From: a virus
Taxonomy: Duplodnaviria; Heunggongvirae; Uroviricota; Caudoviricetes
IMG/VR virus record: IMGVR_UViG_3300008453_000586
Reading direction: 5' to 3' (one strand)
DNA: 64,000 nucleotides
In this document: piece after piece, positions 34,400-43,689 of the stretch
Numbering within the stretch: the first letter of the stretch is position 1
Layout: every line of letters begins with the position of its first letter
Made by a program: the position numbers and the translations under genes
The notes under the pieces: model-generated
Told to the model about the DNA's origin: nothing
Database searches by the model: none
What the model saw: the letters and a program-made list of their open reading frames with translations, nothing else

Positions 34400-35623
34400 A
34401 TGAAGGATTTTATAAAACAATTACTTAGAGAAAACCTACAATTGGCTGACAAAGTTTATTTCAATTCTGGAAAATTATCACCTAGAGTTAGAGAAATAAT
34501 CACACATGTCACCAATGGTGACCCATATACCAAAATTATGACTGACATATACTACACTATGTTAATGGATGGTCATAGAACAGGTAATTGGGCGTTAAAA
34601 CAAATAGACCCAGAACATCAAGAAACTGAAAAACCTGAGAATGACGTTATGGGTATGGATGATTTGAAAAAACTAAGACCATTATACAATCAATTAAAAG
34701 AATACAACAAAAACGTATTCCCAATCAAAGGTTTTAATATCAACGGTGTTGAAAACGTAAATGACTTAATCAGAGCTTTGACTCAGCGTGAAAAAATACT
34801 TAACATATTTAACGAATGGCCTTCAATAGCCAAAAGAAATATGAAGGATGATATTAGAAGAGAAAGAGATAGTAGTGAAATGAATAATTATAGAGATTCA
34901 TTAGAAAATGCTGACGCTTATATGTCTATGTTAAACAATAGAAACGAAGAAGCTAAACGTAATATTCTAGCTAAAATTTTTACAAAAAATACAACCTTGG
35001 ATAACGTTATGGATTTCCTTTACGACAAAGAAAGTCTTTTGGGTGGTGTCGATATGACCAGAAAACAAGTAGGGCAAATACTTAAATACGATAAAGAAAA
35101 TTATGATGAGTTAAAGGTTAAATATAATAAAGGTAACATAATGATTATTGAAGTTTCTGGTCCAGAAGGTATTAAACTAATTGGTTGTAATTCATTGTGG
35201 TGTTTTACTTATAATAGAAAAGGTGGTGTTACAAATTGGAACGATTGGTATAACAATTCTACTAACGGGTATTGTTACATAATCATAGATTTTTCGCAAT
35301 CTTCAGATTCCGAAGATTTCATGCACGTACTCACAAAACCATTACTATATGATTATTCAGATTATAGAGGAGATTCTGAAAGATTATACAATATGGCCAA
35401 CAGAGATATGGGTGATTCTGATGGTGATGATGAAATTTATGGTAGTTATATTAACAGAACGATTGAAAGTTATCTAGATTTACCAACAGCTATGAAAGTG
35501 ATGAATTTTGGTATTCAACCACCAAAAGAGAAAAAGAAGAAACAAAAATTTGTTGACCCTAATCAATTAGCTTTGGATTTAAACGAAATAAAAAAAATAT
35601 TAAGAACTAATTTGTTTAATTAA
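34400..35623 (+). CDS. hypothetical protein with N-terminal MKDFIKQLLRENL motif
   Basis: 407 aa; N-terminal motif shared with four other proteins in the window. Confidence 0.4.
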   Translation: MKDFIKQLLRENLQLADKVYFNSGKLSPRVREIITHVTNGDPYTKIMTDIYYTMLMDGHRTGNWALKQIDPEHQETEKPENDVMGMDDLKKLRPLYNQLKEYNKNVFPIKGFNINGVENVNDLIRALTQREKILNIFNEWPSIAKRNMKDDIRRERDSSEMNNYRDSLENADAYMSMLNNRNEEAKRNILAKIFTKNTTLDNVMDFLYDKESLLGGVDMTRKQVGQILKYDKENYDELKVKYNKGNIMIIEVSGPEGIKLIGCNSLWCFTYNRKGGVTNWNDWYNNSTNGYCYIIIDFSQSSDSEDFMHVLTKPLLYDYSDYRGDSERLYNMANRDMGDSDGDDEIYGSYINRTIESYLDLPTAMKVMNFGIQPPKEKKKKQKFVDPNQLALDLNEIKKILRTNLFN

Positions 35624-35633
35624 AAAATAATAG

Positions 35634-35641
35634 TATCTTTG
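35634..35641 (+). promoter_or_regulatory. -7 box TATCTTTG; ATG 5 nt downstream (leaderless)
   Basis: tagtatctttgcaaaATG. Confidence 0.5.
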
Positions 35642-35645
35642 CAAA

Positions 35646-36827
35646 ATGAAAACAGAAATTAAACAAATTCTTAGAGAAGGAGTTGTAATGGAACAAAGAA
35701 TCAAATTCAATATCCCTATTCCAGAAGACATTCAACAAATACAAGACGTATTCAAGAAAAACGGATACAAGTTGTACGTTGTTGGTGGCGCTGTTCGTGA
35801 TGCGTTGTTAGGTAAAATACCTAAAGATTACGATTTGGCTACAGATGCTGTCCCAGACAAAGTTGAAGAAATTATGGCTAAAGCTGGATTTAGAACTCTA
35901 CCAACTGGTAAAGCTTTTGGGGTTATCAACGTGTTTACTGACCTAGGAGAATACGAAATTGCTACATTTAGAGAAGACATCGGTTCTGGTAGAAGACCAG
36001 ATGGTGTATCTTTTACAAACATAGAAGGTGATGTTAAAAGACGTGACCTTACCATTAACGCTTTGTTTTTCGACATAGACACCAAAGAGATTGTAGACCT
36101 TGTAGGTGGTGTAGAAGACCTTAAAAAAGGTATCGTAAGAACTGTAGGTTCGGCACAAGATAGATTTGGTGAAGATAGACTTAGAATACTTAGAGCGATA
36201 AGATTTGCAGGTAGATTCGGTAGTGGTTTAGACCCAGATGTAGACGCTGCGTTGCAGCAAGATGCTAGTCTTGAAGGCATCTCTGGTGAACGTATTAGAG
36301 ATGAATTCATCAAAGGGCTTATTTCAGCTAAATCAACCGACGTTTACTTGTTGATGTTAGACAAATACAAATTGTTTGATTGGATATTTCCTAACTTGGA
36401 TGTTGATACAAGGGTATTTAGAAGAAACAGTGATTACAAAGCTGATGATTACATAGTATTGTTGGCTAGGTTGTTAAAAGGTAACAACGTTGATGTATTG
36501 AGGAAAAAACTAAATGATTTAAAATACTCATCGGATGAGATTAAAGCCATTGTGTTTTTAATTTCATTATTGAAGTTAGATGTTGACACTGCTTACTTAT
36601 TAAAGAAAGTACAACAAACTTCTGGAGTATCCAACGACCAAATTAGAAATTTTGGTAGCAACGAAGGTATATCATCACAATTGCTAGATGCTTTTGAAGA
36701 GTTCAGACTAACAGTGACTGGTCCAGAAGCGATGGAAAAATTCAATATAGGTCCAGGACCTGAACTTGGAAAAGCCATTCAAAAAATGGAAACTGATAAA
36801 TTTAAAAAATTATTAGGATTATCTTGA
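35646..36827 (+). CDS. tRNA nucleotidyltransferase (CCA-adding enzyme) / poly(A) polymerase family
   Basis: VVGGAVRDALLG...DYDLAT head-domain motif; RRDLTINAL; RLRILRAIRFAGR. N-terminal MKTEIKQILREG motif. Confidence 0.8.
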   Translation: MKTEIKQILREGVVMEQRIKFNIPIPEDIQQIQDVFKKNGYKLYVVGGAVRDALLGKIPKDYDLATDAVPDKVEEIMAKAGFRTLPTGKAFGVINVFTDLGEYEIATFREDIGSGRRPDGVSFTNIEGDVKRRDLTINALFFDIDTKEIVDLVGGVEDLKKGIVRTVGSAQDRFGEDRLRILRAIRFAGRFGSGLDPDVDAALQQDASLEGISGERIRDEFIKGLISAKSTDVYLLMLDKYKLFDWIFPNLDVDTRVFRRNSDYKADDYIVLLARLLKGNNVDVLRKKLNDLKYSSDEIKAIVFLISLLKLDVDTAYLLKKVQQTSGVSNDQIRNFGSNEGISSQLLDAFEEFRLTVTGPEAMEKFNIGPGPELGKAIQKMETDKFKKLLGLS

Positions 36828-36872
36828 TTTATTACTTTGCCATAATATATTTATGTAAAAATACTTTATATT

Positions 36873-41950: not shown

Positions 41951-41967
41951 TTTATAACACAAAATAC

Positions 41968-42726
41968 ATGAAATTATTAGTAGTAGATATTGAAACAACA
42001 GGTTTTTACGCGCAGTCGGATGCTATCGTAGAAATAGGTATTGCCCTAGTTGATACCGTAACCAAAAAAATCGAAATAGTTTTCGATAACGTAATTAAAC
42101 ACGATAAGTTTAACTCAAAAAGACATAAGAACTCTTGGATATTCCAAAACACAACACTTACGGTTGAAGACGTTGAAAATGCGAAATCTTTGGATGACTA
42201 CAGAGAAGAACTCCAAGAATTGTTTGACAAATACAAAATGACCGCGTATAACAAATCATTTGACCTTAGATTCTTAAAAGCTGCTGGGTTTGAAATGAAA
42301 GATGTTAAGTGTCTTATGCAAACAGCCACACAATACTCACAATACAAAGATAAGAATGGTAAAACCAAAAGACCATCGGTGGAAGAGATTTATAACCAAT
42401 TCTTTATGAAGGACGGTGAGGTATATGTTGAAGAACATAGAGCTGGCGCTGATGCTAAAGATGAGGCTAAGATTATGCTTCACATGGTTGATTTAAAAGA
42501 TTCTAAACTTATGTTAATGGAAGATAAAAAGAAACCAGCCACAACCAAAGTATCAAAAGCGTTGGATGAAGATGATGTGATTAATTTTGGTAAGAACAAA
42601 GGTAAAACAGTTGGTGAGATTGTCAAAACAGCACCGCATTATCTTAAATGGTGTTTAAAAGAAATTCCAAATTTCTCTTTAACACCAAACGTTAAAAAAT
42701 TATTATATAAAAAAGTTGCTAGTTAA
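41968..42726 (+). CDS. DEDD-family (DnaQ-like) 3'-5' exonuclease
   Basis: Exo I VVDIETTG, Exo II YNKSFD, Exo III HRAGADAKDEA motifs. Confidence 0.7.
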   Translation: MKLLVVDIETTGFYAQSDAIVEIGIALVDTVTKKIEIVFDNVIKHDKFNSKRHKNSWIFQNTTLTVEDVENAKSLDDYREELQELFDKYKMTAYNKSFDLRFLKAAGFEMKDVKCLMQTATQYSQYKDKNGKTKRPSVEEIYNQFFMKDGEVYVEEHRAGADAKDEAKIMLHMVDLKDSKLMLMEDKKKPATTKVSKALDEDDVINFGKNKGKTVGEIVKTAPHYLKWCLKEIPNFSLTPNVKKLLYKKVAS

Positions 42727-42738
42727 AAAACTAATATA

Positions 42739-42746
42739 TACATTTG
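42739..42746 (+). promoter_or_regulatory. -7 box TACATTTG; ATG 5 nt downstream
   Basis: TAnnTTTG match. Confidence 0.4.
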
Positions 42747-42750
42747 CACA

Positions 42751-43689
42751 ATGAAAAAAGAAATAAGAACAATATTAAGAGAAGACATGAAAAAAAATGC
42801 GTTGGGTGTTGTGGTTACAAGACCAACACAAGAACTGATAGTTATGCGCGGAATACCAGGTTCTGGTAAATCAACAAAAGCTAAAGAACTAGTAGGTGAA
42901 GGTATCATACACTCCACAGACGATGTTATTGAGTCACAAGGTGATTACAACAAATTCTTTGCAGCAATGTTTGAGTCGAAAGATTTCACACCATTGTCAA
43001 GAGCGCACTCAACAAACTTGAAAAATGCGATAAAATCTTTGAAAGAAGGTTTATCACCAGTTATTGTGGATAACACGAACATCAAACAAAACGAATCCAA
43101 AGCGTATGTGAAAGCAGCGTTAGAATTAGGTTTGTCTGATAACAACATAAAATTTGTTGATATAGGCACCAATGGATTGTCAGCTGAAATACTTGCTGAG
43201 AGAAATACTCACGGTGTACCATTGGAAAAAATTCAATCAATGATTGAATCTCACAAAGGTCAAGGGTTGTTAACATTGAAAAGTGTTTTGGAGTCTAAAG
43301 ACATGTACAAAGAATCTGATGTGGCATATTCGTGTGTGTTGTTGGAAAAAGCGTCACAAAATGTTTTGTTGCACAATTTGGAACGTTATATGCCAGAAGG
43401 GTGGAAAGTATTTGCGCACCACATGACAATAAATATGGGTGCGTTAAAACAAAAAGAACTTTTGGGTACTGAACAATTTTTGAAGGTAACACAAGTTGGT
43501 TTGAGCGATATGGCTATGGCTGTTAAGGTTAAAACTGACATTGAAACCAAAAATGCTTTCCCACATGTAACTGTAGCGATAAACCCAGATGGTGGTAAAC
43601 CAGTAATGTCTAACGAGATAACTAAATGGCAAGATGTAAAACCATTTATATTGTTGGGGAAAGTAACTGAAATAAAAAAGGGGTCTTAG
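42751..43689 (+). CDS. polynucleotide kinase (P-loop) fused to 2H phosphoesterase (CPDase/LigT-like)
   Basis: N-terminal Walker A GIPGSGKST with the kinase fold; C-terminal tandem H-x-T-x motifs HHMTI and PHVTVA typical of the 2H superfamily. N-terminal MKKEIRTILRED motif. Confidence 0.6.
   Translation: MKKEIRTILREDMKKNALGVVVTRPTQELIVMRGIPGSGKSTKAKELVGEGIIHSTDDVIESQGDYNKFFAAMFESKDFTPLSRAHSTNLKNAIKSLKEGLSPVIVDNTNIKQNESKAYVKAALELGLSDNNIKFVDIGTNGLSAEILAERNTHGVPLEKIQSMIESHKGQGLLTLKSVLESKDMYKESDVAYSCVLLEKASQNVLLHNLERYMPEGWKVFAHHMTINMGALKQKELLGTEQFLKVTQVGLSDMAMAVKVKTDIETKNAFPHVTVAINPDGGKPVMSNEITKWQDVKPFILLGKVTEIKKGS

Follow-up and report, generated by a model that had tools for sequence, protein, structure and literature searches.

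A portable N-terminal leader on unrelated proteins of large uncultured phages: a candidate capsid-targeting peptide

Why would a phage place the same short peptide at the head of proteins that are otherwise unrelated? The question is raised by a stretch of 64,000 nucleotides (nt) from a Caudoviricetes virus (IMG/VR record IMGVR_UViG_3300008453_000586), called here the window and meaning the stretch at its full length. Four of its open reading frames (ORFs), those starting at 34400, 35646, 41322 and 42751, share the N-terminal pattern MK..[I][KR]..[IL]LRE. An initial annotation had reported five occurrences of this leader, four of them N-terminal and one inside ORF 40491, and all five have been confirmed. 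The reading favored here, with a probability of roughly 0.6, is that the leader is a new capsid-targeting, protease-cleaved peptide analogous to the capsid-targeting sequence (CTS) of phage T4.

The highest-scoring copies are the canonical ones. ORF 34400-35623, a protein of 407 residues without a Pfam family, begins with MKDFIKQLLRENL (34400..34438, plus strand), which reaches 30.0 bits against a 16-residue profile built from related leaders. Orthologues bearing the same leader are found in four related loci (L010, L005, L018 and L288). The second canonical copy, MKDLIKNLLRENL (41322..41360, plus strand; 26.4 bits), heads ORF 41322-41918, an ART-PolyVal ADP-ribosyltransferase (ART) that matches PF18760 at 1.4e-7 and passes the Pfam cut-off. 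The CCA-adding enzyme encoded by ORF 35646-36827 (PolyA_pol/CCA-adding in Pfam) carries MKTEIKQILREGV (35646..35684, plus strand; 24.8 bits), and the kinase/2H-phosphoesterase of ORF 42751-43689 (AAA_33 kinase with a tRNA_lig_CPD 2H domain in Pfam) carries MKKEIRTILREDM (42751..42789, plus strand; 19.5 bits). Earlier, one and the same motif had been attributed to all five proteins. The copies are real, and the refinement is that those of ORFs 35646 and 42751 form a variant of their own, in which position 4 is polar and position 8 is isoleucine. The internal copy NKFLIKTLLRENL (40863..40910, plus strand; 17.9 bits) spans residues 128-140 of ORF 40491-41318, is preceded by LNE (residues 125-127) and separates an N-terminal "X-domain" from a ParB-C-like domain. 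When the profile was applied to the six-frame translation of the window, one degenerate sixth copy was added, LDLNEIKKILRTNLFN (35573..35620, plus strand; 6.2 bits), at the very C-terminus of ORF 34400 with the stop codon immediately behind it; all other sequence stays at or below 4.6 bits. From the composition of the 128 ORFs of the window, 3e-5 N-termini of the leader form are expected, against four observed. The parts behind the leader fall into different BLAST clusters, which agrees with the former statement that the downstream sequences are unrelated.

Such a repeat could be conserved as DNA, as RNA or as peptide. The 39-nt copies of the window have only 20-33 of 39 bases in common (51-85% identity), and the DNA 5' of the start codons differs between them and shows no conservation. 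The codons used at conserved residues, compared over 69 related copies, are close to background synonymous usage (Lys AAA 84% versus 83%, Glu GAA 83% versus 82%, Arg AGA 70% versus 65%), Leu-9 being the sole conserved position that leans to CTT. Since synonymous codons are free and the flanking DNA is unconserved, selection acts on the amino acids and the repeat is a peptide motif. A DNA repeat, or a repeat linked to a promoter, is ruled out by the unconserved upstream DNA and by the number of common bases, and an RNA-level signal by the background-like synonymous usage. The same variation, together with the internal and C-terminal copies, leaves the shared translational signal considered in the initial annotation unsupported. 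In a related form of that idea, the first codons would be an expression element that boosts initiation on the leaderless or Shine-Dalgarno-less messages typical of Bacteroidota. The second codon is indeed AAA in an A-rich context, with A enriched at -3, -6 and -12, and promoter-like boxes stop 3-5 nt short of the ATG, so that many transcripts may be near-leaderless. However, what is conserved is a hydrophobic heptad followed by R-E-N and not a series of nucleotides, copies also occur internally and at a C-terminus, and many leader genes lie inside operons with no adjacent promoter. Moreover, the capsid and scaffold genes of the clade head loci, presumably among the most highly expressed, have no leader. 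The probability left to an expression element is minute.

How widely is the peptide distributed? A strict back-translated DNA pattern recovered 58 stretches from IMG/VR, nearly all with the match at a genuine ORF start. Their contigs are low in GC (26-38%) and often 50-370 kb long, and several hold two or three matches. A relaxed pattern retrieved at least 120 stretches. The profile scan of the 154 stretches (1.4 Mb) obtained with both patterns contains at least 182 distinct leader ORFs, whose post-leader sequences fall into at least 68 BLAST clusters. N-terminal copies number 160, and about 13 are truly internal or C-terminal. All contigs are low-GC phage, up to 473 kb. The conserved part comprises 11-16 residues. 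L9-R10-E11 is present in at least 152 of 155 N-terminal copies, a figure to which the search pattern itself contributed. In 36% of the N-terminal leaders another [LI]xE, which the pattern did not impose, ends at residue 15 or 16, compared with about 1% expected per position.

The proteins behind the leader are mostly of a single domain, with a median of 183 residues, and the fusions have two or three domains. Most clusters belong to no Pfam or PHROG family. The annotated cargo includes GNAT acetyltransferases, ART-PolyVal proteins (PF18760 matches in 4 of 86 representatives), CCA/poly(A) polymerases, AAA_33 kinases, GP88, DUF5661, phage lysozyme, nucleotidyltransferases, ParB-like proteins (DGHHR) and HExxH proteins. 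This cargo resembles injected effectors, as seen in the ART-PolyVal, GNAT, HExxH, ParB-like and kinase proteins and in a lysozyme.

In the genomes of bacteria and archaea the leader is practically missing. Across 596 Gb of them, the strict pattern has no match. The relaxed pattern gives at least 120 matches there, mostly chance-like: 17% stand at plausible ORF starts versus 84% in IMG/VR, and the hydrophobic bias at position 13, present in 87% of the IMG/VR matches, is absent. The sole convincing match, on a 170-kb contig binned in a metagenome-assembled genome, is to a homologue of ORF 34400. A 42-column leader profile run against a set of 5.8 billion proteins produced 120 candidates, of which 19 short proteins were returned.

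The internal copies tell how the leader relates to the domains around it. In a relative of 331 kb (L288; ERZ4198739 NODE_10), the ParB-C-like domain is a standalone gene that starts with MKDLIKNLLRENLLENEY, exactly the internal motif of ORF 40491. The earlier suggestion of a second start or processing site at this copy is thereby borne out by a phage whose flanking ART gene is 92% identical and in which the domain is a gene of its own starting MKDLIKNLLRE. Elsewhere, the junction [LIV]-[ND]-E-x-K-x-L-I-K-x-L-L-R-E connects the X-domain with several kinds of domain: with ART-PolyVal in 13 homologues, and further with ParB-C-like, kinase-like and other ones. The X-domain itself (40491-40871) is a conserved unit of about 125 residues (…GQDVEP.GTYV…LGYDAIIT…EIILFPNC) that serves as head for at least four C-terminal domains, a layout that recalls polymorphic toxins. 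Homologues of ORF 34400 with 642-644 residues (L005, L018) run past the C-terminal copy into an HExxH domain, with the junction LGLNESKNTIKNILTESL, and the same HExxH domain is found in other loci as a standalone gene with its own leader. Some proteins end directly after a leader copy. Most internal copies are preceded by [LI]-N-E ([LIV]-[ND]-E overall), and the internal helix is therefore flanked by two L-x-E sites that bracket it. The internal copies are gene-fusion junctions.

These arrangements could also be explained if the motif were a recombination junction for swapping, fusing or splitting cargo cassettes, its peptide having no role. The variety of domains joined to the X-domain, the ORF 34400 family with or without the C-terminal HExxH domain, the proteins that stop right behind a copy, and the ParB-C-like domain, which a close relative encodes on its own but the window as part of a fusion, would all fit. 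The nucleotides do not: window copies are merely 51-85% identical over 39 nt, the flanking DNA is unconserved, and synonymous sites vary at background level where the amino acids are near-invariant, the opposite of a DNA-level signal. A junction without a working peptide is thus very unlikely, and the shuffling is better read as a by-product, probably the consequence, of a shared module.

Structure prediction is consistent with a module that is detached from its cargo. In the AlphaFold2 model of ORF 41322 (predicted local distance difference test, pLDDT, 88), residues 2-11 form a helix of pLDDT about 57, residues 12-18 lie below 50, and the ART domain begins at residue 22 with values above 90. 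Structural matches of this model are PARP domains, the ART anti-CRISPR structure 6kyf and one chain of the pre-ejectosome of cyanophage A4. For ORF 40491 (pLDDT 84, predicted template modelling score 0.49), an isolated helix at 127-142 (pLDDT about 60) is placed between two confident domains. In both models the leader helix is unpacked against the confident domains and a disordered stretch comes after it. The helix is amphipathic, with a hydrophobic moment of about 0.55 and a basic stripe formed by K2, K6 and R10.

Homologues of the same cargo in other phages have other N-termini. The HExxH protein has a homologue, gp325, in the T4-like Vibrio phage PVA8, which opens with MITFNEHLVE/A (a slash standing here for an established or candidate cut). 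A homologue of the ParB-C-like domain, from a 172.5-kb contig with T4-type neck genes, starts MLTFKQFIQE/T; its gene lies between gp13/gp14 and gp15/terminase. Both peptides resemble the T4 CTS, MKTYQEFIAE/A, which was checked on T4 IPII. Within 50 kb near gp325, the strict T4-CTS-like pattern fits gp325 only, gp327 and gp328 being looser. Other ParB-C-like homologues have 8-10 initial residues that end in hydrophobic-x-Glu, for example MNFKLWLE. Among 99 homologues of the ORF 41322 ART, 20 have the LLRE leader and 13 are fused through an internal leader; the remainder either bear another leader (MKIGKIYExLVxE) or open at once with the catalytic domain (MFFHGS...). Rak2-like ART homologues open with a helix ending in IMEG or IVEG, and no other protein with such an IMEG-type N-terminus was found in 75 kb of the Rak2-like phage CBB. 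As some ART homologues start directly at the domain, the leader is an add-on, and an exchangeable one, as would be expected if it were matched to the assembly core of each phage lineage. The MKIGKIYExLVxE peptide, which ends in [LIV]-x-E, heads many ART-PolyVal homologues (P0034-P0045, P0093 and others). It has also been observed internally, after the same X-domain (P0039), and in one locus (L287:5455-6027) its gene adjoins genes with LLRE-type leaders.

Leader genes are linked to the genes of the head. With the portal, the Peptidase_S77 protease and the Gp23 capsid protein of CBB as queries, head genes were detected in 32 leader loci, all of the searched loci having been fetched solely via the leader pattern. 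The order is TerL, portal, protease, scaffold-like protein (420-450 residues) and capsid protein. Leader genes start 150-1900 nt 3' of the capsid gene on the same strand. This slot is occupied by 28 distinct leader proteins from 18 clusters and is therefore a hypervariable cargo position; its families include HExxH, ART-like and ParB-like proteins and the family of the ORF 40491 C-terminal domain. A close relative of the window is among these phages. Of the 362-kb IMG/VR contig IMGVR_UViG_3300042502_001233, one slice (L010) shows 91% DNA identity with the window across the region of ORF 34400, and another slice (L044) encodes Peptidase_S77 (5e-26; 6511-7236 of the slice) and Gp23 (5e-72) by Pfam. 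In some relatives (L007:6582-7262 and L044:2326-3009) an inserted endonuclease VII or HNH-like gene separates the first leader gene from the capsid gene, which suggests homing-endonuclease traffic at the cargo slot.

The protease of these heads offers a second link. T4 gp21 cleaves after L/I-X-E and removes 65 residues from gp23 (PMC9026906). In an alignment of T4 gp23 (the sequence used is 99.8% identical to T4), CBB_257 and three capsid proteins of the clade, the T4 maturation site FLTE/AEIGG coincides with MLRE/SATAG in CBB and SLLTE/STTA in the clade. The clade protease is very probably specific for L-x-E, a rule that the leader core L-L-R-E fits.

A third link is provided by the DNA upstream of the genes. 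Upstream of about one third of the leader genes stand a terminator hairpin, a T-run and (G)ATATTTATAG(G/T)T, the last reaching up to the ATG. In the window, this arrangement occupies 34355..34399 on the plus strand: the hairpin (34355-34372) and T-run are followed by the promoter-like motif GATATTTATAGGT, the end of which abuts the ATG of ORF 34400. In relatives the motif NATATTTAT stands 24-30 nt before the protease gene (nine of nine) and 65-71 nt before the scaffold gene (nine of nine), the capsid gene coming next and having no motif of its own. Among 160 leader genes, 62 (39%) have it no more than 26 nt from the start, versus 169 of 1165 control ORFs. In the window, NATATTTAT occurs at 9549, 12723, 15505, 17089, 23227, 34387 and 36846 on the plus strand and at 48137 on the minus strand, often after a hairpin and T-run and 13-42 nt before ORF starts; its targets include ORF 34400, ORF 36873 and a minus-strand tail-fibre operon. 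We infer that NATATTTAT marks the promoter class of virion genes, and it may be the late promoter of these phages. The motif is the reverse complement of the T4 late box TATAAATA.

The two RNA-repair enzymes of the window do not follow this scheme. Both genes have a Bacteroidota-type TAnnTTTG box that stops 4 nt short of the ATG, TATCTTTG at 35634-35641 for the CCA-adding enzyme and TACATTTG at 42739-42746 for the kinase/2H protein. Such boxes are found 4-5 nt before the ATG in three of three CCA-adding and six of seven kinase/2H leader genes tested, and the distance implies that their transcripts would be nearly leaderless. The leaders of both families have the polar position 4 and lower profile scores. 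The case for packaging is weaker for these enzymes, two of the five window copies, because they combine the variant leader with a TAnnTTTG box in place of the head-gene motif in 9 of 10 genes.

Together, these observations suggest the following course of events. The leader is a modular amphipathic N-terminal helix of 11-16 residues, M-K-x-hydrophobic-I-K-x-L-L-R-E, often continued by N-L-L-x-E, which a clade of large uncultured phages with T4/Rak2-like heads attaches to many unrelated cargo enzymes. During prohead assembly, the helix would dock the cargo on the scaffolding core. The Peptidase_S77 prohead protease, of the T4 gp21 type, would then remove the leader by cutting after Glu-11 (L-R-E/), and the mature enzyme would stay in the head and be injected with the DNA. 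Two-domain precursors of the ORF 40491 type might be packaged whole and split at [LI]-N-E/ ... L-L-R-E/. The comparison with the T4 CTS made in the initial annotation has gained from the S77 protease, scaffold and Gp23 genes in close relatives, the post-capsid slot, the LxE site of the capsid protein, the shared promoter-like motif and the T4-CTS-like N-termini of homologues, and packaging and cleavage, including core binding, presence in the virion and injection, are predictions of this model. The widest version of the model, in which a clade-wide portable tag of 11 residues loads dozens of enzymes, tRNA-repair enzymes included, into the capsid and some fusion precursors are cut at the tag, is tentative and somewhat doubtful.

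The same helix could instead be a docking element for a partner other than the capsid, such as a phage or host chaperone (DnaJ/DnaK), a ClpXP-type protease that reads it as an N-degron for timed turnover, other leader helices with which it would form a non-covalent complex of several enzymes, or a membrane. Leucine-rich cores with flanking basic residues are similar to DnaK-binding sites and to ClpX N-motifs. The amphipathic helix with its basic stripe K2/K6/R10 would suit such a role, the window encodes DnaJ, ClpP and a metallopeptidase, and the enzymes with variant leaders are placed behind host-type promoters. Nevertheless, docking of this kind leaves unexplained the post-capsid placement of variable leader genes from 18 clusters, the promoter-like motif shared with the protease and scaffold genes, the T4-CTS-like peptides on homologous cargo of T4-like phages and the [LI]xE sites bracketing internal copies. 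The helix is also short (11-13 residues), its Arg-Glu is invariant and its hydrophobic face bears a conserved Asn, features unlike those of a membrane anchor. Non-capsid docking is accordingly judged unlikely. All three rival explanations account for fewer observations than capsid targeting does.

Several points nevertheless weigh against capsid targeting. The window has no head genes, and its five leader genes lie in a tRNA and RNA-repair block and not behind a capsid gene. The L-x-E sequence is short and readily produced by amphipathic helices rich in Leu and Glu, and there is no significant similarity to the T4 peptide MKTYQEFIAE beyond the Met-Lys start and the hydrophobic-x-Glu end. The search patterns fixed residues 1, 2, 5, 6 and 8-11, so that conservation at these positions was partly imposed, yet positions 4, 13 and 14-16 were unconstrained and are clearly non-random. 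NATATTTAT also precedes 14.5% of control ORFs, and its timing class is only inferred. The variant leader on the CCA-adding and kinase/2H enzymes goes with host-type TAnnTTTG boxes, which suggest early expression; packaging of RNA-repair enzymes is the weakest part of the original proposal. No cultured phage with the leader was found in INPHARED, by tblastn or among selected relatives. INPHARED gave no near match to the leader region, tblastn with ORF 34400 and the largest cargo family gave zero matches, and the leader is absent from the 146 kb of Cellulophaga phage phi4:1, whose DNA ligase is 53% identical, and from the CBB region surrounding the ART homologue. Among the papers searched, none has the string LLRENL in a phage context, and the literature yielded no account of a common leader in phages that are jumbo or infect Bacteroidota. 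The CBB virion proteome of 55 proteins does not include the ART homologue of that phage (PMC5259590). This absence is qualified by the different N-terminus of the CBB homologue and by the ease with which low-copy proteins are missed in a proteome.

To which phages does the window belong? It carries replication genes, RNA-repair genes and 17 tRNA genes. Its DNA ligase is nearest to those of Cellulophaga phages (53%), followed by Rak2-like jumbo phages, and many other leader loci are syntenic with the window at 68-80%. The TAnnTTTG boxes and the enrichment of A at -3, -6 and -12 before leader genes indicate that the host probably belongs to the phylum Bacteroidota. A cluster of ClpP, DnaJ and PhageMetallopep genes is located at 25372-28035, and this ClpP is most similar (40-56%) to those of huge phages of 540-640 kb and of Prevotella Lak phages. 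A dense array of 14 tRNA genes (38764-40472) lies directly upstream of ORF 40491, with His, Ile, Asn and Arg duplicated or triplicated; several calls are unusually long (85-88 nt for His, Ile and Ser). At 33376-33448 ARAGORN calls a "tRNA-Pyl", an amber suppressor whose anticodon is CUA, near an ORF of 133 residues with an RF-1 domain (30863-31264). Long plus-strand ORFs stop at TAA in 45 cases, TAG in four and TGA in one. Stop-codon recoding was considered for odd ORF ends and rejected, as TAG read-through gives no meaningful ORF extension in the window. The plus-strand block with the leader genes is closed by a bidirectional terminator-like hairpin (43677..43698). Far from any head gene, 47 residues (60877-61017, within ORF 60640-61041 of 133 residues) are 68% identical to residues 399-445 of the clade Gp23 and may be a fragment of a capsid gene.

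Should capsid targeting hold, hypothetical proteins of uncultured large phages would become a predicted catalogue of injected proteins, a class whose anti-defence, host-takeover and RNA-repair functions decide an infection's first minutes. The T4 principle, known mainly from T-even phages, would extend to a distant clade whose cargo set is much larger and more modular, pre-made tRNA-repair enzymes could be delivered with the genome, and a short tag would be at hand for loading foreign proteins into Bacteroidota phages in phage engineering. Fusion and fission at the tag also show how effector repertoires are shuffled.

Among known systems, the double-glycine leaders processed by C39 peptidases likewise consist of a short N-terminal leader on diverse cargo. 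They end in Gly-Gly and serve export, whereas the cargo described here consists of cytoplasmic-type enzymes. A C39-like cysteine peptidase gene (37240-37716) does lie among the leader genes and is conserved in two close relatives (L001, L288). A double-glycine leader was rejected: the leader logo has no GG at a fixed position, and the C39 gene occurs in just four sampled loci.

[quoted passage not shown] In both systems a peptide of 10-20 residues is placed on the N-terminus of otherwise unrelated, fast-evolving proteins, starts with Met-Lys and ends at an L/I-x-E site of a gp21 (Peptidase_S77) protease. Close relatives of the window encode the S77 protease, scaffold and Gp23 capsid protein as T4 does, the cargo includes an ADP-ribosyltransferase as with T4 Alt, and the cargo loci are hypervariable. 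The leader differs in its extent, with at least 68 clusters against a handful in T4, in a cargo that adds tRNA-repair enzymes, GNATs, kinases and lysozyme, in its internal and C-terminal copies and in the dedicated slot directly after the capsid gene. Unlike in T4, packaging and cleavage are predictions here.

Propeptides are also known from giant phages such as phiKZ, 201phi2-1 and SPN3US. These are again large phages in which a gp21-like protease cuts after Glu in many head-internal proteins, and the propeptides, each with several cleavage sites, are thought to target proteins into the prohead. However, they are mostly longer than 100 residues, have no single shared sequence and follow the motif S/A/G-x-E instead of L-x-E, and the heads of the present clade are T4/Rak2-like and not phiKZ-like.

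In their domains, the leader proteins resemble the polyvalent proteins (Iyer et al. 2017), whose entry together with the DNA when infection begins has been predicted (PMC5512222); the word "leader" does not occur in that paper. Both sets contain ART-PolyVal, metallopeptidase-like, ParB-like and GNAT domains, and the ParB-C-like module of ORF 40491 is also present in classic multi-domain polyvalent proteins with ART-PolyVal; in P0204 it co-occurs with PF18760. Polyvalent proteins unite 2-15 domains in one giant polypeptide, whereas here the domains are for the most part encoded as small separate genes or two-domain fusions, each with the same leader.

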